45,354 nt of DNA, taken from Candidatus Micrarchaeaceae archaeon (GTDB lineage: Archaea; Micrarchaeota; Micrarchaeia; Micrarchaeales; CABMGC01). A program made the position numbers and the translations under genes. The stretch lies in NCBI GenBank assembly GCA_038877255.1, contig JAVYWZ010000004.1, positions 1 through 45,354 of the forward strand, given 5' to 3'. Shown piece by piece: positions 163-24,239 of the stretch (position 1 is its first letter; each line of letters starts with the position of its first letter). The notes under the pieces are model-generated. The model made no database searches. It was not told the DNA's origin and worked only from the letters and a program-made list of their open reading frames with translations.

Positions 163-281
163 CAAGAATATGGTGAAGAATAATAAATGCTTATCGCACT
201 CTAAACACCCAACAAACGAAACACTTTCATTTAGTATCTTTGCCTTTCAAAAAGTAACATTTATTAATGTTTTTGCTGTTA

Positions 282-400
282 GGCTAATTGTCGATTGTAA
301 GAAGCCGGAGGCTCGGGAGGCGTGCTCGCTCTTGTTAGGCTCCAGCAGGAGATTAAGCCAAATTCCCGACCCGCTACTACGGCAAGGAGCCATCATGCTT
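282..400 (+). ncRNA. tracrRNA: Putative tracrRNA (boundaries approximate)
   Basis: 285-301 TAATTGTCGATTGTAAG is the exact reverse complement of repeat nt 1-17. It is followed by GC-rich stem-loops (AGCC...GGCT enclosing GGGAGGCG/CGCTCTT) and preceded by TATA-like TTTATTAA at ~260-267. Confidence 0.85.
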
Positions 401-424
401 ATTTGTTGAGACAAGGGTGCCTGT

Positions 425-3415
425 TTGGCTGAAGATGTGAACATCCAAAAAATTCCAGAACAACTAACGGAGCGTATAAAGGAGTTCAATTCTGCATTCA
501 AATTAGGCATAGACCTAGGCACCAAAACCGGCGGTGTGGCGCTTGTAAAAGATAATAATGTGCTTTTTGCTAAAACTTTCTTAGACTTCCACAACGAGAC
601 ATTGAAAGAAAGGAGAGAGCGCAGGCGCAACAGGCGTAGCAGATTAGCTAAGAAGAAGAGAATTGCAAGGCTAAGGTCTTGGGTATTGAGGCAGAAAGTA
701 GCTGGCAAACAGCTGCCTGATCCTTACGACCTTAAAATAAAGAATATGGTTCTAAGCAAGTTGCTCAAAGAGAAAGGCATTAGTGGGGAAGATAAAAAGA
801 ATGTAAGTAACTGGAGCGAAGTTGTTATAAAAGGATACGATACGTCTCCAGAAGCTTTCGTTAAAGCACTAACCTTGATATTCAAGAAAAGGGGCCAATT
901 GTACGAAGAAATGGCAGACCATATAAAAGATATGACAGACGAGCAGCTAAAGAGTTATATAGAATCTCTTAAGGTAATCACTAACGAAGCTAAAGACGCG
1001 CTGATTGAGGAAATAAATTTGAGGCAAAGCATTGCTGAAAATGGCAGACTTATAAGAACGTACAGCACGTTACAAGAAAAAATAAAAGAAATAGCGGATG
1101 AGTCAGAGCACAGCAAATCTAAAGCCAAGGACAGAAAACAGCGTGAAGCTGAGATAAAACAGCTTGTTGAGGCGTTCTGCAAAGCAAATAATATAGATGA
1201 CAAAACATGCCAAAAATGGATTTCTGATTTAGCAGGGCTTTTGAATAAACCTGTCAGAAAAGCAAGGTTTCTGAACCGCATAGTAATAAGATGCAATATT
1301 TGCGACAAAATTACGCCAAAGAAGTCACGAAAGGATATTAGACCTCTTCTATATGGCCTTGCAGTAATAAACTTTATAAAAGCGGGCAGGCTTGAACCTA
1401 ATGAAGACCTTAAAAAAGAGTTTAATACATTATACGATGAAGCCGGATATATAAGGCAGAAGATAATTAACAACGAAAAAATGAGTGATGAGGAGAAAAA
1501 GGATAAGAGAGCTATATTAAACCGTCTCAAAAAGTACATAAATAAGGATCTGCGCGAATATGAAAAGAAACGAGCGACCGATAAGCAAAAGGAAATGTTA
1601 GATCAAATTAAATCGCTACTTTTTGATAAGCTAACAGGCAGGTCTAAATATTGCAAGAAGCATTTAGAAGAACAGGCAAACGGCATTGATATAGAGAAAG
1701 GCTATCACGGCCAGTTGCATAAAAGGTATGGCCGGAATTTCGCGCAACAGAACCACGACAAGCGTGTTATAAACCTTATCGAGCAATTGTTTTTTAATGA
1801 AAACGAGACTCTTGCTAATGAGATCAAGAATAATGACATAAGATACATTACCATAGAAGCACCAAAGCCTAATACAAAAAGAACAAAGAAAGGAGAAGTA
1901 ACAAAGAAGGATACGAGAACAATTAAGGAGAAGCTTTTTGAAGAGCAAGTAGGTGAGCAAGGAACCATTTGCATATACACTGGGCAATCGCTTTCCAAAG
2001 ATGAGATTGAAAAGTATGAGAAAGACCACATATTCCCCGAGTCAAGAGGCGGTCCATCCATACGCGATAATCTTGTTCTAACAACTAAGGAAATAAACGT
2101 AGAAAAAGGCGACAGAACCCCTTGGGAATGGCTTCACGAAGATTCCTCGAAATGGGAAGCGTTCAAAAGCAGAGTTGAGATGCTTTATAAAAAAGGCAGG
2201 ATAACAGAAAGGAAAAAAGAGTTGCTTCTAAACAAAAGCAACGAATTTCCTGGCGATAACCCTACTGAACTTGCTAGAGTAAGTGCGCGCATAAACAGTT
2301 TTATTTTGGAAATTAATAAAATGCTCAAAAAGCACGGATTACCAGAAGCACAAACTTTGTTTGAGCGGGGTAAGCCTATTGTGCAAGTTGTAAGAGGTGA
2401 GGAAACACAAAAGCTTCGCAGGCAATGGCACGCGGAAAACGAAGGCTTTATTCCGCTAAAAGATAGAGCTTACTCATTTAACCATGCAGAAGATGCGGCT
2501 ATCGCTGCAAGCATGCCACCAAACTTTTGGAGATTGCAGATTTATAGATATAAATGGTCTTTTCCAGATGGCAAAGAACGCCCTGACTTTGCTTTGCCAG
2601 ACATTGCACCTCACTGGAGCGCGTTTGTAGAATCTAGAAAAGAGCCCATAATATGCGTACTTGGCAAGACAAAGTATTCATGGAAGAGAAGCATAATAAA
2701 TGAAACTATCTACAAACCTTTTAACGAAAGATCGTATTATAAAAGCATAAATAAGAGAGACCTAAAAAGTGCCAGCAAAGCTATAAAGGATGAAGTGCCG
2801 CTTAAAGAGCTCAATGAGCATAAAATGAGTGAAAAATACAACTATTACCACATAACATACAATAACAAGCGTTACTTAATTAAGGCTCCAAAGGGCGGTT
2901 CGAGTATATTGGTAAAGCCGCATGACGGTCCGCAAAAGCTTTTGGAAATATCACCAAAATATGAATTTGTACTTTTGGGCGAATCAGACGGCAAAATCAA
3001 AAAGATATACAAGCCAATATGGCCCATACTTAAGATGTATGAAAGCGGGGTAATAAAAGACATCAAGGACAACGAACTCAAGAAAAACGTAGAACTGTAT
3101 TACGAATTCTTTAAAGACAAGAAAAATGTTTTGTCAAGTTATAAAAAATTATATTTGCACGATATTGTATATCTTGATACTAAAAAGCATAAAGGCTATT
3201 TCATTACTACCAAATTTTCTTCTAAGCAAGGAGTAAAGGCACTTCCAGAGTCAAAGGTAAAAATAATGTATGCCTATAATGGGGGTCAAAGCGAAGGAGA
3301 AGATGTAAAAGGCGAAAAGAAGGAAAGCAACGAAATAACTTTAGGTAATGAGGATTTGGCTTATATAATAAAGCATGGTGTTGTTTACAGATCTGGGTTG
3401 CGTTTACGGATCTAG
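425..3415 (+). CDS. cas9: Compact archaeal Cas9 (ARMAN-1-like, type II-C2/II-D), 996 aa
   Basis: RuvC-I GIDLGTKTGG, Arg-rich bridge helix RRERRRNRRSRLAKKKR, Zn motifs CNIC and CKKH, RuvC-II ITIEAP, HNH EKDHIFP...N, RuvC-III NHAEDAA. Adjacent to tracr and array. TTG start after SD-like AGGGTG. Confidence 0.97.
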   Translation: MAEDVNIQKIPEQLTERIKEFNSAFKLGIDLGTKTGGVALVKDNNVLFAKTFLDFHNETLKERRERRRNRRSRLAKKKRIARLRSWVLRQKVAGKQLPDPYDLKIKNMVLSKLLKEKGISGEDKKNVSNWSEVVIKGYDTSPEAFVKALTLIFKKRGQLYEEMADHIKDMTDEQLKSYIESLKVITNEAKDALIEEINLRQSIAENGRLIRTYSTLQEKIKEIADESEHSKSKAKDRKQREAEIKQLVEAFCKANNIDDKTCQKWISDLAGLLNKPVRKARFLNRIVIRCNICDKITPKKSRKDIRPLLYGLAVINFIKAGRLEPNEDLKKEFNTLYDEAGYIRQKIINNEKMSDEEKKDKRAILNRLKKYINKDLREYEKKRATDKQKEMLDQIKSLLFDKLTGRSKYCKKHLEEQANGIDIEKGYHGQLHKRYGRNFAQQNHDKRVINLIEQLFFNENETLANEIKNNDIRYITIEAPKPNTKRTKKGEVTKKDTRTIKEKLFEEQVGEQGTICIYTGQSLSKDEIEKYEKDHIFPESRGGPSIRDNLVLTTKEINVEKGDRTPWEWLHEDSSKWEAFKSRVEMLYKKGRITERKKELLLNKSNEFPGDNPTELARVSARINSFILEINKMLKKHGLPEAQTLFERGKPIVQVVRGEETQKLRRQWHAENEGFIPLKDRAYSFNHAEDAAIAASMPPNFWRLQIYRYKWSFPDGKERPDFALPDIAPHWSAFVESRKEPIICVLGKTKYSWKRSIINETIYKPFNERSYYKSINKRDLKSASKAIKDEVPLKELNEHKMSEKYNYYHITYNNKRYLIKAPKGGSSILVKPHDGPQKLLEISPKYEFVLLGESDGKIKKIYKPIWPILKMYESGVIKDIKDNELKKNVELYYEFFKDKKNVLSSYKKLYLHDIVYLDTKKHKGYFITTKFSSKQGVKALPESKVKIMYAYNGGQSEGEDVKGEKKESNEITLGNEDLAYIIKHGVVYRSGLRLRI

Positions 3416-3621
3416 TAAAATATAAATTTTAATATTAGTTTGGGCAATAAGCCGTATGCCTTTGTTTTCTCAAAACTTAATTTTTATCCGTCGTATGTGC
3501 GTCATTAAATCTAATTAGCAGAATCTCTCGAGAGCACTTAAGGACGCTGACTTCTCAAATGTCTGCTTGCTTCACCATAAGGCTAATCTTCGTAGGATTC
3601 GCTTTTACGGCCTTCACCCGG

Positions 3622-3642
3622 AGATATATATAAATATCTTCT
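3622..3642 (+). promoter_or_regulatory. Probable CRISPR leader-proximal TATA element
   Basis: AGATATATATAAATAT immediately upstream of the first repeat. Confidence 0.45.
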
Positions 3643-4185
3643 CTTACAATCGACAATTAAATATTTTGTTTGTGTAATACATAAATCCGCTGAAATTGGC
3701 GTTTTATTCTGTATCTTACAATCGACAATTAAATATTTTGTTTGTGTAATATAAAACAATAATTGACGATTTTAGATGTTTTAATCCTTACAATCGACAA
3801 TTAAATATTTTGTTTGTGTAATTTGCCTTTAATCTTGTGTATTAAAGTATATGTTTGTTATCTTACAATCGACAATTAAATATTTTGTTTGTGTAATACA
3901 ACAGAAAAATATTAAGAAACCCATCAATTTTTGACTTACAATCGACAATTAAATATTTTGTTTGTGTAATTCTGAAATATATGAACTATGGATTAACGGG
4001 TGCTATGCTTACAATCGACAATTAAATATTTTGTTTGTGTAATAATAAAAATATTTAAAAAGCCACGCATGGGGTAAGCGCTTACAATCGACAATTAAAT
4101 ATTTTGTTTGTGTAATTTCGGCAGCAGGATATATAATGGAGGTGCAAGACTTACAATCGACAATTAAATATTTTGTTTGTGTAAT
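3643..4185 (+). CRISPR. CRISPR array: 8 identical 36-bp repeats CTTACAATCGACAATTAAATATTTTGTTTGTGTAAT, 7 spacers (36,36,39,37,37,37,33 bp)
   Basis: Repeats start at 3643, 3715, 3787, 3862, 3935, 4008, 4081 and 4150, with TTACA...TGTAA inverted ends. The + orientation is inferred from the + strand anti-repeat pairing with the repeat 5' half. Confidence 0.98.
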
Positions 4186-4194
4186 TTCTATGTA

Positions 4195-4785
4195 TTAAAA
4201 CACATCGTCGCAGAAATTCCTGAATTCGCAGAAGATGCATTTTGCTGTTGATTCCGTAGGCTTAGGTCTTGTACTGCGTAAAATATCTTTTCGCAGATTA
4301 GCTGCAATTTCTATCACTTTTTCTTTATCTTTATCTGTTATGATAATCTTCTCTAATCTTGTAGCGGTATCTGAATATGCATACACAAAGTAACCTGCTA
4401 CTGATTTCACCTTTAAGGAGTCTTCAATAAGCATGGCGTATGCTGTCAGTTGGGTCTTATATTTACTTGGGTCTGCACTATACTTAATTTCTATTGGATA
4501 CGCCTCTCTATCACCAATCAGGGCATAGTCTAGTCTCCCCTGAAGCATTAGGTTATGGCTTCTGAGTTTTAGATTTCTTGCCAAACGGTAGCCATTAGCA
4601 ATCTTATCGCGGAAAATCATTTGCATATTTTCTATAGTTAATGACTCTTCAAAACTCTTTCCAACAAGCATTCCATAAGTTTCGTATCCCGCTCTCGCTA
4701 TTGTGTTGTTGTAGAAAGGTATTCTTGCGCAATAGGCATACTGTTTGATATCGTTTACATTTATCCAGAGTTCGGTATATCTCAT
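4195..4785 (-). CDS. cas4: CRISPR-associated Cas4 exonuclease
   Basis: N-terminal YAYCAR, RecB-like GRLD...PIEIK and QLTAYA, C-terminal CxxC-x5-C (KCIFCEFRNFC). Confidence 0.95.
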   Translation of the reverse strand: MRYTELWINVNDIKQYAYCARIPFYNNTIARAGYETYGMLVGKSFEESLTIENMQMIFRDKIANGYRLARNLKLRSHNLMLQGRLDYALIGDREAYPIEIKYSADPSKYKTQLTAYAMLIEDSLKVKSVAGYFVYAYSDTATRLEKIIITDKDKEKVIEIAANLRKDILRSTRPKPTESTAKCIFCEFRNFCDDVF

Positions 4786-5090
4786 ACTAATTTACTTCTT
4801 GAATACTTGTGGAAACTGTGTAGTTTCTCGCCCATCTTTTCTATAAGTTCAAAGTCGTTTATTTCTCCAATGGCTATTTTTTGGACGAGCACGCTTATTG
4901 GACCGTCGTTCTTTGCAATTTGCTTTAATGCTGTTTTCAGATCCTTTAGTGCCGGCGCCGTCAGCGAACCTGTAAACACGCTATACTGTATGCGCGCAAG
5001 GTCGAAGTTTAGGCATGTATTGATTATCTTCTGCCGCGTATTGTCATTAGTGCAATCATACGAAACTATTACGCCGAACCTGTATGCCAT
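4782..5090 (-). CDS. cas2: CRISPR-associated Cas2 (ATG at 5090; ORF track starts at 5099)
   Basis: IVSYD and RIQYSVF motifs; lies between cas1 and cas4. Confidence 0.95.
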   Translation of the reverse strand: MAYRFGVIVSYDCTNDNTRQKIINTCLNFDLARIQYSVFTGSLTAPALKDLKTALKQIAKNDGPISVLVQKIAIGEINDFELIEKMGEKLHSFHKYSRSKLV

Positions 5091-5092
5091 AA

Positions 5093-6154
5093 TTACCACT
5101 TGAACAAGTACTTTTCATAGTTTCCATTACCCTTGAGCATATTGGCAACCGAGTAGATATTGCTTTGGATTATAGAGCGCATAGTAAGCCTCTTTCCAGA
5201 GTAATATTCTTTCTTTTCAAGCTCTGCTATTATGCCTCTAGACAATAATTTCTTAGAATCGTCGCTTAGCATCCCATCATCTAAGGTTATCTTCTGCCGC
5301 CTATTGATTATTGATAATACCACTTTATCCACAATCCGCGGTTTAAAAGGCTCACTAAGGTCGAGAACTAGAGATGGTTTGCCTGGCCTGTCGGTATGCA
5401 AGAAGCCTGCAAACGGCTCTAACCCAGCATTCAATATGCTCATCCAAGTCAAGGAATAAAGAATTGCATATCCATAATTTATGGAAATATTGACTATGTC
5501 TTCGCTTTCATGGTCGCGTGCTTCAAAGCCGCAGCCAGGCCTCAATACGCTTGCGAAAGCTTTCCAGTATACACGTGCCGCAGTAGCCTCTATGTTAAGC
5601 AGCTGCAGTCTTGCCTGCGCCAGGCTGTGTCCTTCAACATTATTTAGCAAGGGCAGCGTGTGTTGTATGCTGTGAACATATCTCATGATATGTATTGTTC
5701 TTCCAGCTTTTTTGTTCTTTATTGAGTACTTTATTAGTGCCGCTTGGTTGCTTATTTTAGATTCTAGCGCTTTCTTCACAAGGTTTAAGCCAATCTCCTT
5801 GTCTAGAGCAGCAAATTGCGCACGCTTAACTTCTGCGAACGCAGCCAACTGCGGCGATGAAATCATAACATTCGGATAGCTATTGCTCCATATACATATC
5901 TTTATTCCGCGTTTGCATGCCTCTTTTATCAAAGACGTCGATATCGATGCTCCTCTTGATGTTATTATTATTTCGTCCAAATCCGACATTGCATATTGCG
6001 CTATTACTTCCTTTTTCTTCTTTATGATAAGTCTCTCAGACTTTTTGCCTATGAAGTATCCGAAGCCCGATATGATTAGGGTACGTTGGTCTACAACATT
6101 GAACAACTCTCTTAGATTATGCGTCTTTGTGGCTGAAACGCTCACTAGAGTCAC
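5093..6154 (-). CDS. cas1: CRISPR-associated Cas1 integrase (in-frame GTG at 6145 is an alternative start)
   Basis: EATAARVYW, NISINYGYAILY, GFLH and SLVLDLSEPFKP motifs. Confidence 0.97.
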   Translation of the reverse strand: MTLVSVSATKTHNLRELFNVVDQRTLIISGFGYFIGKKSERLIIKKKKEVIAQYAMSDLDEIIITSRGASISTSLIKEACKRGIKICIWSNSYPNVMISSPQLAAFAEVKRAQFAALDKEIGLNLVKKALESKISNQAALIKYSIKNKKAGRTIHIMRYVHSIQHTLPLLNNVEGHSLAQARLQLLNIEATAARVYWKAFASVLRPGCGFEARDHESEDIVNISINYGYAILYSLTWMSILNAGLEPFAGFLHTDRPGKPSLVLDLSEPFKPRIVDKVVLSIINRRQKITLDDGMLSDDSKKLLSRGIIAELEKKEYYSGKRLTMRSIIQSNIYSVANMLKGNGNYEKYLFKW

Positions 6155-6670
6155 CTATTTTCAGAAGACAATTAGCCATATAAAAGTATAGATAGGTGAC
6201 TTTATATTTGGCGCGCATTTCTTTTGTTTCGTTTGTGCTATGTAAGATTGCGTGTGCGTACATTTTGCGCCAATGAACTTGTTGCTTGTTAGTTTTGCCA
6301 CATAGCCTATGCATTTTTGTCTTAGGATAAATGGAGCAAATTACTCTCAGATTGCTGCCTTTAAAAACGATTATTTGGCGGTTCAAAAGCCCAGAGAAAC
6401 ACTAAAATAAGCAAGTGTTTCGTGCCCCTTTTTGCCGTGTTTCTATAGTGTCATACATATAAGCAAAACTTCAACGTATTATCTTATTACATTCGCATAT
6501 GCGGAATGCATAAAAGCTTTTGTATAATATGTTTTTTGTGGAAGGTTGACTATACCAGATGGCCTGGTGTCATTTTGGTTTTGGTTGCCTTCCACATCTT
6601 GTTTTTGCTTGCTTATGAGCTCTAATAGTTAAAGATATAAATAGCCGCATAAAAGTAGATATTGATTCCA

Positions 6671-8179
6671 ATGGCCGATAGCCAGCCAAAGAAAGCAGAC
6701 ACAAGAAATCCTCAGGCAAAAGAAGCATATACCAAGGCAGGCCAGCTGTTCGAAGAGAACAGGTTCGAAGAAGCGATAGACCTTTACAGCCAGGCAATAA
6801 AGCTTGATCCGGTATATTCAAGCGCATATTTCAACAGGGCTCTTTCTTATGCGCTTATAAACCGCTACGACAACGCAAGGCTTGATGCTGAAAAGGTAAT
6901 GGAGCTCGAGCCTGACAGCTTCGACGCCCCTTATGTTCTTGGTTTGGTTAACGAATACGAAGGCAACTTTGAAGACGCCAAAAGCTGGTATGAAAAGGCG
7001 CTCAAGATAAATCCTGATTATCAGCCTGCAAAGACAAGGCTTGAGCAGCTCGCAGGCAGGCTAGGCGTAGAACCTAAGCAGCAACGTGCAAAAGGTGCGC
7101 CTGCTTCTGTCTCAATTTCTTCAAAAGCGGTAAGCGAAGAAGAAGAAAACAAAACTGTGACTGAGGAAGGCCAGATAAAGCGCATACGCTGGTACAAGTC
7201 TAATCTGTCTTTCAAAGACATCATAGGCTTGGAGAAACAGAAAGAGATGATTTATGAAAACATAATACTTGCAATACGCAAGCCAGAGCTGCTTAGAGCA
7301 TACGGCAAGAAGCTTGGATTGGGAGTGCTTTTTTACGGGCCGCCAGGAAACGGCAAGACATACATTGTTAATGCAATAGCAGGAGAGACACAATCCAATG
7401 TCATAGTAGTGCGCATACACGAAATCGTGGACATGTATGCTGGCAATACGGAGAAAAACTTGCACGCGGTATTCGAGCAAGCCAGAGCTCACACGCCGTG
7501 CATACTCTTTTTCGATGAGATAGACGCATTGGGCATGAAGCGAGAAGGCAGCGGCGATCAGATGAGCTATATGCGAATGGCAGTGAATGCGTTCCTAACC
7601 GAAATGGACGGCGTGGAGAAAAACCCAGAAGGCATATTTGTAATAGGTGCAACAAACCAGCCCTGGGACATGGATCCAGCACTGAAGAGGAGCGGCAGGT
7701 TTGGCGAGCGTATTTATTTCCCGCCTCCAAACTACAAAGCGAGGAAAGGGGCTTTCAAGTACAACACGCGCAACATGCCCCTTGGTAGAATCAGCTTTGG
7801 CAGGTTAGCACGCGCCACTATGGGCTATTCGCAGGCAGACATAAGTGATATCTGCGATAAAGCAGCACTAATACCTGCTGTAGAGGAAGACAAAACAGGC
7901 GTGAGGAGAAAAATACAAATGAAAGATTTTTTGAAGATGATAAAATTGCATAGCAGCACGCTTGATGAATGGTATGGCATGATGCGAAAGGAGATAATAA
8001 GTAAGACAGAAACACAGATAGTAGAGGGCAAAAAAACAGAGATAGTGAAAGAGGGAAAGCTAACGCCTGAGGAGAAAGTCCAGTACAAGCTTTTGGTGAA
8101 AGATGTCAAGAAAAATTCAGGCTCATGGCACAAATTCATAGTGAAGTTTTCCAGATTTGTAGCCTTGCACCTATTCTAA
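6671..8179 (+). CDS. TPR-domain AAA+ ATPase (CDC48/Vps4-type AAA module)
   Basis: Three N-terminal TPRs; Walker A GPPGNGKT, Walker B FFDEID, second region of homology ATNQPWDMDPALKRSGRF. Confidence 0.9.
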   Translation: MADSQPKKADTRNPQAKEAYTKAGQLFEENRFEEAIDLYSQAIKLDPVYSSAYFNRALSYALINRYDNARLDAEKVMELEPDSFDAPYVLGLVNEYEGNFEDAKSWYEKALKINPDYQPAKTRLEQLAGRLGVEPKQQRAKGAPASVSISSKAVSEEEENKTVTEEGQIKRIRWYKSNLSFKDIIGLEKQKEMIYENIILAIRKPELLRAYGKKLGLGVLFYGPPGNGKTYIVNAIAGETQSNVIVVRIHEIVDMYAGNTEKNLHAVFEQARAHTPCILFFDEIDALGMKREGSGDQMSYMRMAVNAFLTEMDGVEKNPEGIFVIGATNQPWDMDPALKRSGRFGERIYFPPPNYKARKGAFKYNTRNMPLGRISFGRLARATMGYSQADISDICDKAALIPAVEEDKTGVRRKIQMKDFLKMIKLHSSTLDEWYGMMRKEIISKTETQIVEGKKTEIVKEGKLTPEEKVQYKLLVKDVKKNSGSWHKFIVKFSRFVALHLF

Positions 8180-8188
8180 TTTTTAAAG

Positions 8189-8260
8189 GGCCTTGGCCGG
8201 GGGTCGGACCCGGGCCTGAGGATCCACAGTCCTCCATGCAGCCGTTACACCACCAAGGCC
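8189..8260 (-). tRNA. tRNA-His(GTG) with genome-encoded G-1
   Basis: Cloverleaf with acceptor GCCTTGG/CCAAGGC and anticodon arm GAGGA-CTGTGGA-TCCTC; atypical T-loop TCCGACC. Confidence 0.92.
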
Positions 8261-8404
8261 ATCGCAAGCAGCACTTTTTATAATATTGCTCGTAAAAGAT
8301 TTATAAAAGTGAGCGGGAAAACATATCATTCAGATAGGGGATGAGAGCGAACCGCAGAAATGCATATAAATTTTGAGACGCATAAAACTATAACCATGAT
8401 CGTC

Positions 8405-8782
8405 ATGAAAACTGCATACAAATATAGGGCATATCCTTCAATGGAACAAAAGGCAAAATTAGATAGTCAAATGTTCCTCGCAAAAAATCTCTACAATCTT
8501 CTTCTTGAAAAATCGAAAGCGTATTACAAAGAAACAGGGAAGACGCTCACCAAATGCGGAAACGCGCAGGAAATGCCCCTGAACAAAAGAACATTCATAT
8601 GCGAGAAATGTGGAAATAAGGAAGACAGGGACATAAATGCATCAATGAATATACTCAAACGAGGCATACTCGCAAGAGCTACCGAAGGACATTCGGGAAG
8701 TCAAGCCTGTGGAGACGATGTAAAACCTTCCGTAAGGGAGGCAATTGCCGGTGAAGCAGGAACTATACGGGTGGCATCATGA
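8405..8782 (+). pseudogene. tnpB: IS200/IS605 TnpB with large in-frame internal deletion
   Basis: N-terminal HTH (KTAYKYRAYPS...LYNLLL) joined at ~8551/8552 directly to the C-terminal Zn ribbon and RuvC-III (KCG...FICEKCG...DRDINASMNI). RuvC-I and RuvC-II are missing. Confidence 0.9.
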
Positions 8783-8845: not shown

Positions 8846-8969
8846 GGCGGGGTAGCTCAGCCTGGTTAGAGCGCTAGACTCATATGCTCAGCATAATGAA
8901 TGATGAGCTTTCTTTGCGATGATTAGCTGGGATATCTAGAGGCCGAGGGTTCGAATCACTCCCCCGCCA
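8846..8969 (+). tRNA. tRNA-Met(CAT), elongator-type, with 49-nt intron at 37/38 (8885-8933)
   Basis: Acceptor GGCGGGG/CCCCGCC and anticodon stem CTAGA/TCTAG. BHB with central helix CUCA/UGGG and 3-nt bulges. Ile2 identity is not fully excluded. Confidence 0.9.
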
Positions 8970-16380: not shown

Positions 16381-16517
16381 GTAATGCCTTATTGTCCTCG
16401 GCCGATATAAGCTTCATCACTATTTCAGCAGTTACTCTATTCTTCATAGGACGTTTATACATGGAATCTAGCATATATAAAGATAACATGCACACTATTC
16501 TATTTGTGAGTGAGCCT

Positions 16518-16964
16518 ATGCGTGCGTATTCGATTAAGTATAAGTATCTGCCGCATACTGCAGAGAAAGCGTTCGTTGCGTATGGCTCCACATTTAGTGA
16601 AGCGTTAGAGAATGCCGCTGAGGCGATGCTCGGAATAATGCTCAACATAAGAAAAATAGGAAGTCAGAAGGCGAAGGATTCTATAACTATTATAAAACAG
16701 AGAGCGGGCACAAAAGAAGACCTCGTATGGTACACTCTGCAGAGAATACTTGAGAAAGTAGACGAAAGAGGCCTAAACGCATACGCATTCAAGGTCAAAA
16801 AGCATGCATACAAAAAAGGCAGAGAAGAGATAGAAGGAATGCTTTTTTGCAAACAGCTAAATGAAGATTACTCGCTGCTCGAGATAAAGGCGGTAACGCC
16901 ATACGATCTTGCTGTAAAGAAAAGCGCCAAAGGCTGGCTCATACGAGTCGTAGTTGATGTATAG
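16518..16964 (+). CDS. Archease (RtcB cofactor)
   Basis: YKYLPHTAE, EIKAVTPY and C-terminal VVVDV. Confidence 0.9.
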   Translation: MRAYSIKYKYLPHTAEKAFVAYGSTFSEALENAAEAMLGIMLNIRKIGSQKAKDSITIIKQRAGTKEDLVWYTLQRILEKVDERGLNAYAFKVKKHAYKKGREEIEGMLFCKQLNEDYSLLEIKAVTPYDLAVKKSAKGWLIRVVVDV

Positions 16965-22571: not shown

Positions 22572-24011
22572 CTAGCCTTTCACTACTAGCACAGGCACAT
22601 TTCTAGCTACGAGCTTTGAAAGGCCTGCCTTTTCAACTACAGCCACTACCTCGTCCACGTCTTTGTATGCCCATTCCGCTTCTTCACTTATCAGGCTTTT
22701 GCTCTTGACCCTGAGCTCTATGCCCTTTTCCCTTAGCGACCTGAGGGTTTTGTTCTCAGGTATTTCTCTTACCGCCTGGTGCCTTGACATAACTCTTCCA
22801 GAGCCATGGCACGTAGTTCCAAAGCTTTCCTTCATCGAGCCTGGCATTCCGCAGAGTATATAGCTTGCAGTTCCCATGCTTCCTGGGATTAGCACCGGCT
22901 GTCCAACGCTCCTATACTCTTTGGGTATTTCCTGCATGCCTTTCGGAAAAGCCCTTGTCGCGCCTTTTCTGTGCACATACACCTTGATCTTTTTGCCTTC
23001 AACCTCATGCTCCTCTAGTTTGGCTATATTGTGCGCAACGTCGTAAAGAACATGCATGCCAAGCGCATCGGCGCTCTTTTCAAATACCTGCTCGAAGCTC
23101 TTTCTTATCGCATGCGTTATTATCTCACGGTTTGCAAAAGCGTAATTTGCTGCTGCTTTCATAGCAGCCAGATAATCTTCGGCCTCTTTGTCTTTTACAT
23201 ATGCATAGCTTAGCTCCCTGTCTGCAAGCATTATGTTGTGCCGTGCCCTGTACTCATTAAGCCTCATCAGATAGTCGCTTGCTATCTGGTGGCCAAAGCC
23301 TCTTGAGCCGCAATGCACCATGATTGTCATCTGGCCTTCTTCCAAGCCGTACGCCCTCGCTGCTTCAATGTCAAAAACCTTTTCAACGCGTTGTATTTCT
23401 AGGAAGTGGTTTCCAGCGCCAAGCGTGCCAAGCTCATGCAGCCCTCTGGACTTAGCTTGACTACTTACCTTGTCAAAATCCGCACCGCGCATTGCCCCGT
23501 TTTCCTCTATAAAGCCTATGTCTTCTTCAATTCCGAAGCCCTTCGAAACAGCGTAGCTTGCGCCTTCTTCTGCTATGCGCTCCAAGTCTTGCATTGAAAA
23601 GCCAAGATTTGACTTGCTGCCTACGCCGCTTGGTATATTCTTGAAAAGTAGGTCTGCGAGCTGCTTTATTTTCGGCCTTATTTCCTGCTCTGTAATATTT
23701 GTCTTTATTGCTTTAATTCCGCAATTTATGTCGAAACCGATGGCTCCAGGCGATATTATGCCCTCATTAGCATCGAATGCGGCTACGCCACCTACTGGGA
23801 AGCCATAGCCTTCGTGGCCGTCTGGCATTACTAGCACGTTGCCGACTAAGCCAGGCAATGTAGCCGCATTTATTGCTTGCTGGAGAGTTCTGTCTTTTTT
23901 AATATAGCCAATGAGCGTGTCATCTGCATAAACAACCACGTTTGTCTTCATTCCTATTTCCTGATTCTTTTTTATGACGAATTTATTGTTTCCTTGCTTC
24001 TCTATTTCCAT
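22572..24011 (-). CDS. rtcB: tRNA-splicing ligase RtcB
   Basis: MPDGHEGYGFPVGG, GFDINCG, GNHFLE, HCGSRG, HRKGAT and HGSGR motifs. Confidence 0.97.
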   Translation of the reverse strand: MEIEKQGNNKFVIKKNQEIGMKTNVVVYADDTLIGYIKKDRTLQQAINAATLPGLVGNVLVMPDGHEGYGFPVGGVAAFDANEGIISPGAIGFDINCGIKAIKTNITEQEIRPKIKQLADLLFKNIPSGVGSKSNLGFSMQDLERIAEEGASYAVSKGFGIEEDIGFIEENGAMRGADFDKVSSQAKSRGLHELGTLGAGNHFLEIQRVEKVFDIEAARAYGLEEGQMTIMVHCGSRGFGHQIASDYLMRLNEYRARHNIMLADRELSYAYVKDKEAEDYLAAMKAAANYAFANREIITHAIRKSFEQVFEKSADALGMHVLYDVAHNIAKLEEHEVEGKKIKVYVHRKGATRAFPKGMQEIPKEYRSVGQPVLIPGSMGTASYILCGMPGSMKESFGTTCHGSGRVMSRHQAVREIPENKTLRSLREKGIELRVKSKSLISEEAEWAYKDVDEVVAVVEKAGLSKLVARNVPVLVVKG

Positions 24012-24142: not shown

Positions 24143-24239
24143 GCAGGGATGGCGGAGCTTGGTCAAACGCGACAGACTCAAGATCTGTTGGCTTAAGGCC
24201 TGCGGGAGTTCAATGCTTGAACAAATCTCCCTCCCTGCA
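24143..24239 (+). tRNA. tRNA-Leu(CAA) with 11-nt non-canonical intron at 58/59 (24214-24224)
   Basis: Acceptor GCAGGGA/TCCCTGC, arm ACAGA-CTCAAGA-TCTGT and long variable arm. Removing TGCTTGAACAA restores T-loop TTCAAAT. Confidence 0.92.

Follow-up and report, generated by a model that had tools for sequence, protein, structure and literature searches.

What kind of CRISPR-Cas system lies at the start of contig JAVYWZ010000004.1, is it intact, and how might it make its guide RNAs in an archaeon where we find no RNase III? The stretch analysed here (the window, to whose 45,354 nucleotides (nt) all coordinates refer) carries the locus within ∼248–6154. An earlier note, made from the sequence, had described a complete ARMAN-1-like Cas9 locus with a trans-activating CRISPR RNA (tracrRNA), an array and a Cas4-containing adaptation operon, and every one of these parts was found where it had been placed. 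We conclude with high confidence that a Micrarchaeote (DPANN) carries here, on its chromosome, an intact adaptive immune locus of CRISPR-Cas type II-D, and one that, judging from its sequence, is apparently complete and functional. According to the 2025 classification (PMC12669027), subtype II-D unites the former II-C2 variant, with its small archaeal Cas9s, and the smallest Cas9s, Cas9d; its loci have cas1-cas2-cas4 in common, encode a tracrRNA and are frequent in DPANN archaea. The description as ARMAN-1-like therefore stands, whilst the filing changes, the family now belonging to II-D, which has absorbed ‘II-C2’.

The Cas9 protein and its relatives

The cas9 gene (425–3415, + strand) encodes 996 amino acids (aa) from a TTG start that aligns with the ATG of the orthologous loci. 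The product is of the Cas9d (former Cas9c2) type: it matches the NCBIfam Cas9d profile NF049971 at 707.1 bits against a cut-off of 375, with residues 26–978 covering profile positions 2–983 of 986, and it has matches to Pfam HNH_4 and RRXRR. The generic Cas9 model TIGR01865 gives 113 bits, limited to residues 458–951. Across 17 clade members there is no variation in the catalytic residues D30, E478, H535, N558, H687 and D690, in the arginines of the Arg-rich helix (R63, R64, R67, R68, R70, R71, R73 and R79) or in the Zn-type residues C290, C293, C410 and H413; among 39 family members each of these is either invariant or conserved at 90% or more. The RuvC, HNH, Arg-rich and Zn motifs that had been read from the translation are thus borne out by conservation.

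An AlphaFold model of the protein (mean predicted local distance difference test score, pLDDT, 77.5; predicted template modelling score, pTM, 0.66) contains a recognition (REC) lobe. Over residues 23–991 it matched SaCas9 (7el1_A; Z 16.6, root-mean-square deviation 13.7, 508 residues aligned), NbaCas9 (9k32_A; Z 15.4, 609 aligned) and NsCas9d (9lgi_A; Z 15.2, 586 aligned). These scores are tied, II-C and II-D structures lying together at Z 14–17, so that the fold alone picks no subtype. By sequence, the closest chains in the PDB are the small Cas9d enzymes, with E values of 1e-13 for the protein and 5e-31 to 2e-36 for the family profile; no ∼1000-aa enzyme of the ARMAN/MG33 branch was seen among the matching solved chains. 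The small enzymes (NsCas9d 9lgi, NbaCas9 9k32 and Cas9d-MG34-1 8zq9/9auf) share with the window's protein the Arg-rich helix, the Zn ribbon CxxC...CxxH and HNH. They differ in their size of ∼740–760 aa, and sequence similarity ends past HNH, leaving the WED part and the part interacting with the protospacer adjacent motif (PAM) unaligned.

Whilst the RRXRR match, a weak N-terminal match to the IscB model NF040563 and a TnpB-like remnant 2 kb past cas1 might suggest a transposon-borne nuclease of the OMEGA/IscB type mistaken for II-D, we regard this as close to impossible. The IscB score is 42.6 bits against a cut-off of 175, to be set against 707 and 375 for Cas9d, and the protein has 996 residues and a REC lobe. 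Above all, the reading is refuted by the CRISPR array, the tracrRNA with its anti-repeat and the cas1-cas2-cas4 genes, all of them present. A 2026 survey (PMC12988326) warns that many automatic archaeal ‘II-D’ calls are of IscB type; because the array and adaptation genes are there, that warning does not apply to the window.

Searches for relatives of the protein found 44 homologs. The nearest is a Micrarchaeaceae protein of 994 aa (P0002, 84% identity), and the second, P0003, is a partial sequence with 80% identity that is labelled Conexivisphaerales. A group at 56–57% identity includes, among others, the ARMAN-1 protein BK997_03320 (P0006, 949 aa) and P0007 (968 aa), which is the same as Cas9c2-MG33-33 across the 400 residues shown in the supplement of PMC9755519; MG33-3 differs from it by a few residues. 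In an IQ-TREE phylogeny of 39 proteins, the window's protein and P0002 (support 100) are sister (support 98) to the ARMAN-1/MG33-3/-33 group, and all of them fall within a 14-member archaeal-type branch (support 100) that stands apart from ∼25 bacterial members at ∼30% identity. This was a quick tree with an arbitrary root, its careful search unfinished, and it included no II-A, II-B or II-C outgroup. The protein had been proposed as a distinct ortholog, and its 56% identity to the ARMAN-1 Cas9 and its separate, well supported sister branch agree with that.

The locus nonetheless represents a new sub-lineage of a clade, ARMAN/MG33, whose kind, classification and activity are already in print. 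The MG33 family, of 900–1050 aa, clusters with two ARMAN references in Aliaga Goltsman et al. 2022 (PMC9755519). The listing there gives in vitro activity for MG33-3 (968 aa, from Micrarchaeota, with cut site 3) and a 3′ nGG PAM for the three active members MG33-3, MG33-31 and MG33-34. The identification made in the earlier note holds, and its estimate of novelty was too high, since MG33-3 is listed as active, its sister locus (L021) has the same repeat and its guide scaffold the same anti-repeat. For the specialist there is accordingly nothing surprising here, although the clade is little studied. What the locus does offer is a complete archaeal II-D example with adaptation genes on a Micrarchaeote genome that is 92% complete, from a sub-lineage whose nearest characterised relative is an enzyme of 56% identity. 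Archaea go unmentioned in a 2026 preprint on MG102-like Cas9d.

ARMAN-1 (BK997_03320), the type example of the former II-C2, belongs to the same clade as the window, with 56% identity over 98% of the length and, like the window, a lysine at position 838. It differs in its length (949 against 996 aa), in its separate branch and in having Q841 where the window has E. The MG33-3/MG33-33 system of Candidatus Micrarchaeota (PMC9755519) is represented among our sequences by loci L021 and L020 and by proteins P0007, P0008 and P0004; L021 is a near-identical sister locus of MG33-3 and carries the window's repeat. These loci resemble the window in the repeat (36 of 36 positions in L020 and L021), the 17-nt anti-repeat, the tracrRNA core, the gene order and the Zn and catalytic motifs. 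They differ in the C-terminal third of Cas9, where identity is 34–48% in 50-residue windows, and at two positions where the MG33-3 type has R838 and Q841 and the window K and E.

An assignment to type II-C (II-C1) was also considered, and is ruled out by the presence of cas4 together with a TIGR01865 score of only 113 bits over 458–951. The type II-C systems of Neisseria and Campylobacter likewise have a compact Cas9 of ∼1000 aa and can produce CRISPR RNA (crRNA) without RNase III. Unlike the window, they are not known to carry cas4, and they have another tracrRNA fold and a Cas9 of the TIGR01865 type.

Two further Cas9 genes were seen in genomes of the same family. Locus L002 (G026:C47, 658–3642, − strand) holds a 994-aa frame of canonical Cas9 type that runs off the end of the locus and scores 661 bits with TIGR01865 and just 165 bits with the Cas9d profile. 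This is either a second type II kind in the family or a foreign contig in an assembly of 150 contigs that is 73% complete. Locus L076 (G118:C41, ∼1501–4494) has a Cas9d gene with the top family score that we saw, 1018.6 bits; no array or match to the tracrRNA model was found in the 5.9 kb of this locus, with filters off and E up to 10.

Array, adaptation genes and host chromosome

The cas9 gene is followed by a 227-bp leader (3416–3642, + strand) and by an array (3643–4185, + strand) of eight identical 36-nt repeats, starting at 3643, 3715, 3787, 3862, 3935, 4008, 4081 and 4150, with seven spacers of 33–39 nt. The degenerate repeats of the L020 and L021 arrays sit at the cas9-distal end, and for this reason we take 3416–3642 as the leader and read the array on the + strand. 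The anti-repeat agrees with this reading in its geometry, since the part of the repeat to which it pairs is the one that comes after each spacer. The motif TTCTCAA occurs twice in the leader (3464–3487 and 3540–3563) and is kept in all five aligned leaders (window, L020, L021, L004 and L005); it may serve spacer integration, either as a leader-anchoring element or as a promoter. A TATA-like run (∼3624–3636) lies shortly ahead of the first repeat, and a TATA-like box also lies 10–25 nt ahead of the first repeat in the leaders of L020, L021 and L004.

Convergent with the array are cas1 (5093–6154, − strand, 353 aa; TIGR00287 209.8 bits, Pfam Cas_Cas1 E 2.4e-59), cas2 (4782–5099, − strand, 105 aa; Pfam CRISPR_Cas2 E 2.7e-14, TIGR01573 35 bits against a cut-off of 24.5) and cas4 (4195–4785, − strand, 196 aa; TIGR00372 96.6 bits against a cut-off of 65, Pfam Cas_Cas4). 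The three make up a single operon in which stop and start codons overlap. The convergent cas1-cas2-cas4 module first read from the open frames is now backed by profile matches for each gene, and the adaptation module of subtype II-D is present. The Cas4 translation has a single N-terminal cysteine and a C-terminal CxxCxxxxxC. Cas1 is 69% identical to that of L021, 49% to that of L004 and 37–41% to those of the bacterial family loci. The order tracr-cas9-array followed by cas4, cas2 and cas1 in reverse is common to the window, L021 and L004, whereas the bacterial family loci have cas9-cas1-cas2-cas4 on one strand and then the array.

The 36-nt repeat is identical at 36 of 36 positions in the window, L020 and L021, despite identities to L021 of 56% for Cas9, 54% for Cas4, 69% for Cas1 and 76% for Cas2. 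The Cas9s of the window and of the MG33-3/-33 loci L020/L021 differ most in their REC and PAM-side parts. An identical repeat combined with diverged Cas9s makes this a good pair for asking which changes in the protein determine PAM choice and guide compatibility.

The position of the locus at the very start of the contig raises the question of whether its first 6 kb, or the whole contig, is bacterial or mobile DNA that was mis-binned or mis-joined. The GC content is 0.31–0.42 in the locus and 0.43–0.465 in the next 6 kb, the Cas9 family occurs in bacteria as well, and P0003 (80%) is labelled Conexivisphaerales. The contig itself, however, carries the archaeal housekeeping genes for RtcB, archease, aRF1, RIO1, ERCC4 and KsgA, and its RtcB is 79–80% identical to Candidatus Micrarchaeia proteins, its closest relatives, in line with the archaeal origin that had been claimed for the Cas9 system. 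In its nearest Cas9s, its repeat type and its gene order the locus sides with other Micrarchaeota/DPANN loci and not with bacterial ones, and the same genome has a second, solitary repeat on a different chromosomal contig. Taken together, these points make a foreign origin highly improbable, and we continue to place the locus on the Micrarchaeote chromosome.

The host genome comprises 713 kb in 30 contigs. No match to RNase III was found in it by a search whose control was positive in nine of 14 reference genomes. The Cas9 itself is patchily distributed in the phylum: a protein search of 60 relatives gave no close homolog and two weak matches, a Cas9d above the cut-off was present in four of 401 sampled phylum genomes (the window's own included), and none was found in five congeners, four of which were sampled again among the 401.

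The solitary repeat copy just mentioned matches the array repeat at 35 of 36 positions and lies on contig C20 of the same genome (L065, 3802–3837, − strand), a contig with ribosomal protein genes, in a 274-bp gap flanked by genes for a FEN1-type nuclease and an amino-acid kinase. On the same strand, ∼45 nt upstream of the copy, stands a TATA-like box. Nowhere else in the genome is there a match of at least 16 nt to the flanks, the gap does not align with congener G002, and no target was seen in the genome. The copy may be a remnant, or it may act as a regulatory unit resembling a crRNA. A stretch of 20–25 nt from the same intergenic region (L065, 3878–3902) recurs with 92–95% identity on contigs C3, C19, C8 and C6 and may be a shared regulatory motif.

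The tracrRNA and the making of crRNA

The first point to note about the tracrRNA is its anti-repeat (285–301, + strand), which is a perfect complement of repeat nt 1–17, and of 18 nt for the three of eight repeats with a T in front of them. At no more than two mismatches, the 17-mer occurs nine times in the window, at 285 and at the eight repeats of the array, compared with a mean of 0.04 in shuffled sequences (n=100). The perfect 17-nt anti-repeat and the eight identical repeats that the earlier note had picked out are therefore both real. In an alignment of the region upstream of cas9 from six loci, one anti-repeat is common to the window, L020, L021 and L025, whilst L004 and L005 have other repeats and their own anti-repeats, matching over 14 nt and 15 nt respectively, so that repeat and anti-repeat covary across three repeat types.

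A covariance model built from these six loci matches the window at 286–408 with 102 bits, and the predicted tracrRNA occupies 285–408 (+ strand), with a 3′ end placed near a T-rich run at 398–406. Outside its seeds, the model matches the same strand directly upstream of cas9 in ARMAN-5 (L007, 69.5 bits) and in a Nanoarchaeota contig (L006, 68.1 bits) and, at bacterial loci, with 35 (L029), 26 (L009), 19.3 (L038) and 18.3 bits (L039). Over the 12 aligned rows, 90.9% of 320 cells are paired, compared with 36–44% when the partners are slid by 1–3 columns, and both sides change in 19 of 30 pairs; none of 500 shuffles attains the observed values. Two features of this count weigh against our reading of the locus: the alignment was fitted to the model's own nested structure and is biased towards it, and six of the 11 real rows are the model's own seeds. 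In addition, the twelfth row is a spurious array match with gap cells, and three of the seeds are near-copies of one another.

A pseudoknot between GGCUCC in the loop of the inner hairpin (338–343, + strand) and GGAGCC (386–391, + strand) lies outside the covariance model and was added by hand. Its helix is 98.2% paired in the rows that have letters there, and two of its six pairs have changed on both sides. Because a single-sequence fold of 285–424 was no stabler than those of shuffled sequences (z 0.53), the structure is drawn from comparative analysis alone. A tracrRNA with an anti-repeat and an omega-RNA-like, pseudoknotted scaffold beside the array is a trait of subtype II-D, and one that the sequence predicts here.

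Published guide RNAs show the same elements. The scaffold of the MG33-3 single guide RNA (sgRNA), one of the listed active guides (nGG PAM, cut site 3), opens with the window's 17-nt anti-repeat, and the core is common (PMC9755519). The window's tracrRNA is without the extra hairpin of the MG33-3 type, and one of its helices has been rewritten by compensatory changes. The NsCas9d sgRNA is described as having a P1 of 17 Watson–Crick pairs followed by J1, J2, P2 and P3, its 3′ end forming a pseudoknot with the P3 loop (PMC12339737), a likeness to the window's P1 of ∼17 bp and 3′ pseudoknot. The sgRNA parts that had been named for the window, repeat nt 1–17 and 285–∼400, are the right ones.

There is an oddity in the published listing. 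The ‘active sgRNA’ of MG33-3 in PMC9755519 joins N(20) straight to the anti-repeat, without a repeat segment or loop, unlike those of MG33-31 and MG33-34, and its listed length of 128 nt is that of the scaffold alone. This is either an error in the table or a hint of a direct guide–tracrRNA fusion as in omega RNA.

Where would the tracrRNA begin? A putative promoter (248–267, + strand) has a purine-rich AAAAAG resembling a transcription factor B recognition element (BRE), followed by the TATA-like TTTATTAA (260–267). The TATA-like element stands ∼18 nt ahead of the anti-repeat, in the same alignment columns, at all six orthologous loci. It resembles the AAAAGA-ATATATAA boxes that precede the tRNA genes of the host genome, 30–23 nt before the mature 5′ end, and from this tRNA-like spacing a start at ∼285–295 is predicted. 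The tracrRNA thus probably starts at or just inside its anti-repeat, which would also explain why complementarity is limited to 17 nt.

We propose the following working of the locus. Cas1-Cas2 would insert spacers at the leader-proximal repeat beside cas9, with Cas4 trimming and selecting the prespacers, and the array would be transcribed on the + strand from a promoter at the leader end. The tracrRNA, of ∼120 nt, would be a primary transcript starting at or within a few bases of the anti-repeat, forming 17 bp with nt 1–17 of each repeat, with a tail of nested helices closed by the pseudoknot into an omega-RNA-like Cas9d scaffold. Cas9 would bind the crRNA:tracrRNA duplex, and the complex would cut matching DNA flanked by a PAM with its HNH and RuvC sites. 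In the 2025 classification, processing of the II-D precursor is left open, since these archaea are without RNase III (PMC12669027), and a host of this kind is a good place for asking how II-D systems make crRNA. For the window, as its genome has no RNase III that we could find, we propose that the crRNA ends are most likely set by host exonucleases, which would trim the parts unprotected by Cas9.

Rather unlikely, in our estimate, is a second route, in which the crRNAs of this RNase III-less archaeon would be unit transcripts and not cut from a long precursor. Here nt 14–21 of each repeat would act as a TATA-like box (TTAAATAT), directly followed by an oligo-T run (TTTTGTTTG); transcripts would start a few bases into the spacer and stop in the next repeat just past the 17 tracrRNA-pairing nt, and the tracrRNA would likewise be a primary transcript from its anti-repeat. 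The TATA-like, T-rich centre of the repeat is A/T-rich, is kept in three archaeal repeat types and is lacking in the GC-rich repeats of the family's bacterial loci; with no RNase III found, such a centre allows for promoters and stops borne by the repeats. The spacing of the tracrRNA TATA box also fits. On the other hand, no clear BRE was seen in the repeat, which counts against unit transcripts, as do the AT-richness of the genome and the presence of a putative leader promoter. A genome-wide promoter consensus drawn from the regions upstream of open reading frames was too diffuse for scoring the repeat.

If unit transcripts were made, they would answer the question of crRNA maturation in DPANN II-D systems that PMC12669027 leaves open. 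They would also help to explain why all 36 repeat bases have stayed unchanged amid Cas identities of 54–76%. Such an arrangement would correspond, in an archaeon, to the promoters carried by the repeats of Neisseria type II-C. For the present, we prefer exonuclease trimming of a longer transcript. We also considered whether the crRNA:tracrRNA duplex offers the tRNA splicing endonuclease a bulge–helix–bulge site, and dropped the idea, the 17-bp duplex being perfect.

PAM, spacer targets and flanking genes

The C-terminal divergence from ARMAN-1 to which the earlier note had pointed is confirmed by the alignment: identity in 50-residue windows is 36–60% at 751–975, compared with 82–86% around RuvC-III. 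Against ARMAN-1 and the MG33-3 type together, the figures are 70–86% around RuvC/HNH, 26–48% in the REC parts and 34–60% at 751–975. The PAM region has thus diverged enough for a shift from nGG to be possible. The PAM is nevertheless most likely 3′ nGG, by analogy with all three tested clade members; it is the default expectation because these members use nGG despite ∼30% identity across the archaeal–bacterial split. Replacement of two family-conserved C-terminal residues, R838 and Q841, nevertheless tells against simply taking nGG over for the window's enzyme. The known PAM contacts of NsCas9d are K662, N664, G647 and K728. The C-terminal parts of the solved Cas9d chains could be aligned neither with the family profile nor with a 58-aa piece around W753/K754; since these parts do not align by sequence, the contacts cannot be mapped onto the window's protein, and whole-model structure searches gave no residue map.

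The search for spacer targets gave no protospacer. The seven spacers had only self matches in their own genome; phage and plasmid collections gave nothing below E 0.1. The array gave only short AT-rich matches in 248 genomes of the order (best E 2e-6), with at most 25 of 37 bases agreeing on ungapped re-checking. In IMG/VR, exact 22-mers from the 3′ ends of four of the seven spacers (7, 5, 6 and 1) gave 0 matches each, and the whole repeat gave 0 matches.

These results bear on whether the locus is a silent or decaying remnant, its genes whole but neither acquiring spacers nor cutting, and several points lean that way and away from an intact, working system. The array is short, with seven spacers, none of which matches anything searched. 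Two family-conserved residues are replaced: R838, found in 36 of 39 family members, is K in the window, and Q841, found in 31 of 39, is E, as it is in P0002. The family is scattered, as the four of 401 phylum genomes and the five congeners show. The original ARMAN-1 and ARMAN-4 Cas9s, moreover, reportedly gave no cleavage in their first tests.

Set against this, the four cas frames are open, with overlapping stop and start codons, the catalytic residues are intact, all eight repeats are identical, and the tracrRNA retains every helix and the pseudoknot. The change at 838 is shared with ARMAN-1 and P0002, and is therefore a lineage trait and not fresh damage. We accordingly give the remnant a small probability, and hold to an intact, apparently functional locus.

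Beyond the locus, a gene for a 505-aa fusion of TPR and AAA ATPase domains (6662–8179, + strand) adjoins the region upstream of cas1, from which it is divergent; we saw no evidence that it belongs to the CRISPR system. The TnpB-like remnant (8360–8782, + strand) is a truncated frame of 140 aa with an IS605 OrfB helix-turn-helix and a Cas12f1-like TNB domain, and lies between a tRNA-His gene (8188–8259) and a long tRNA match at 8846–8969. The latter (124 nt) and another at 24143–24239 (97 nt), both on the + strand, were matched by Rfam and not by ARAGORN, and are probably intron-bearing archaeal tRNAs. The same contig encodes the splicing ligase RtcB (22572–24011) and archease (16392–16964).

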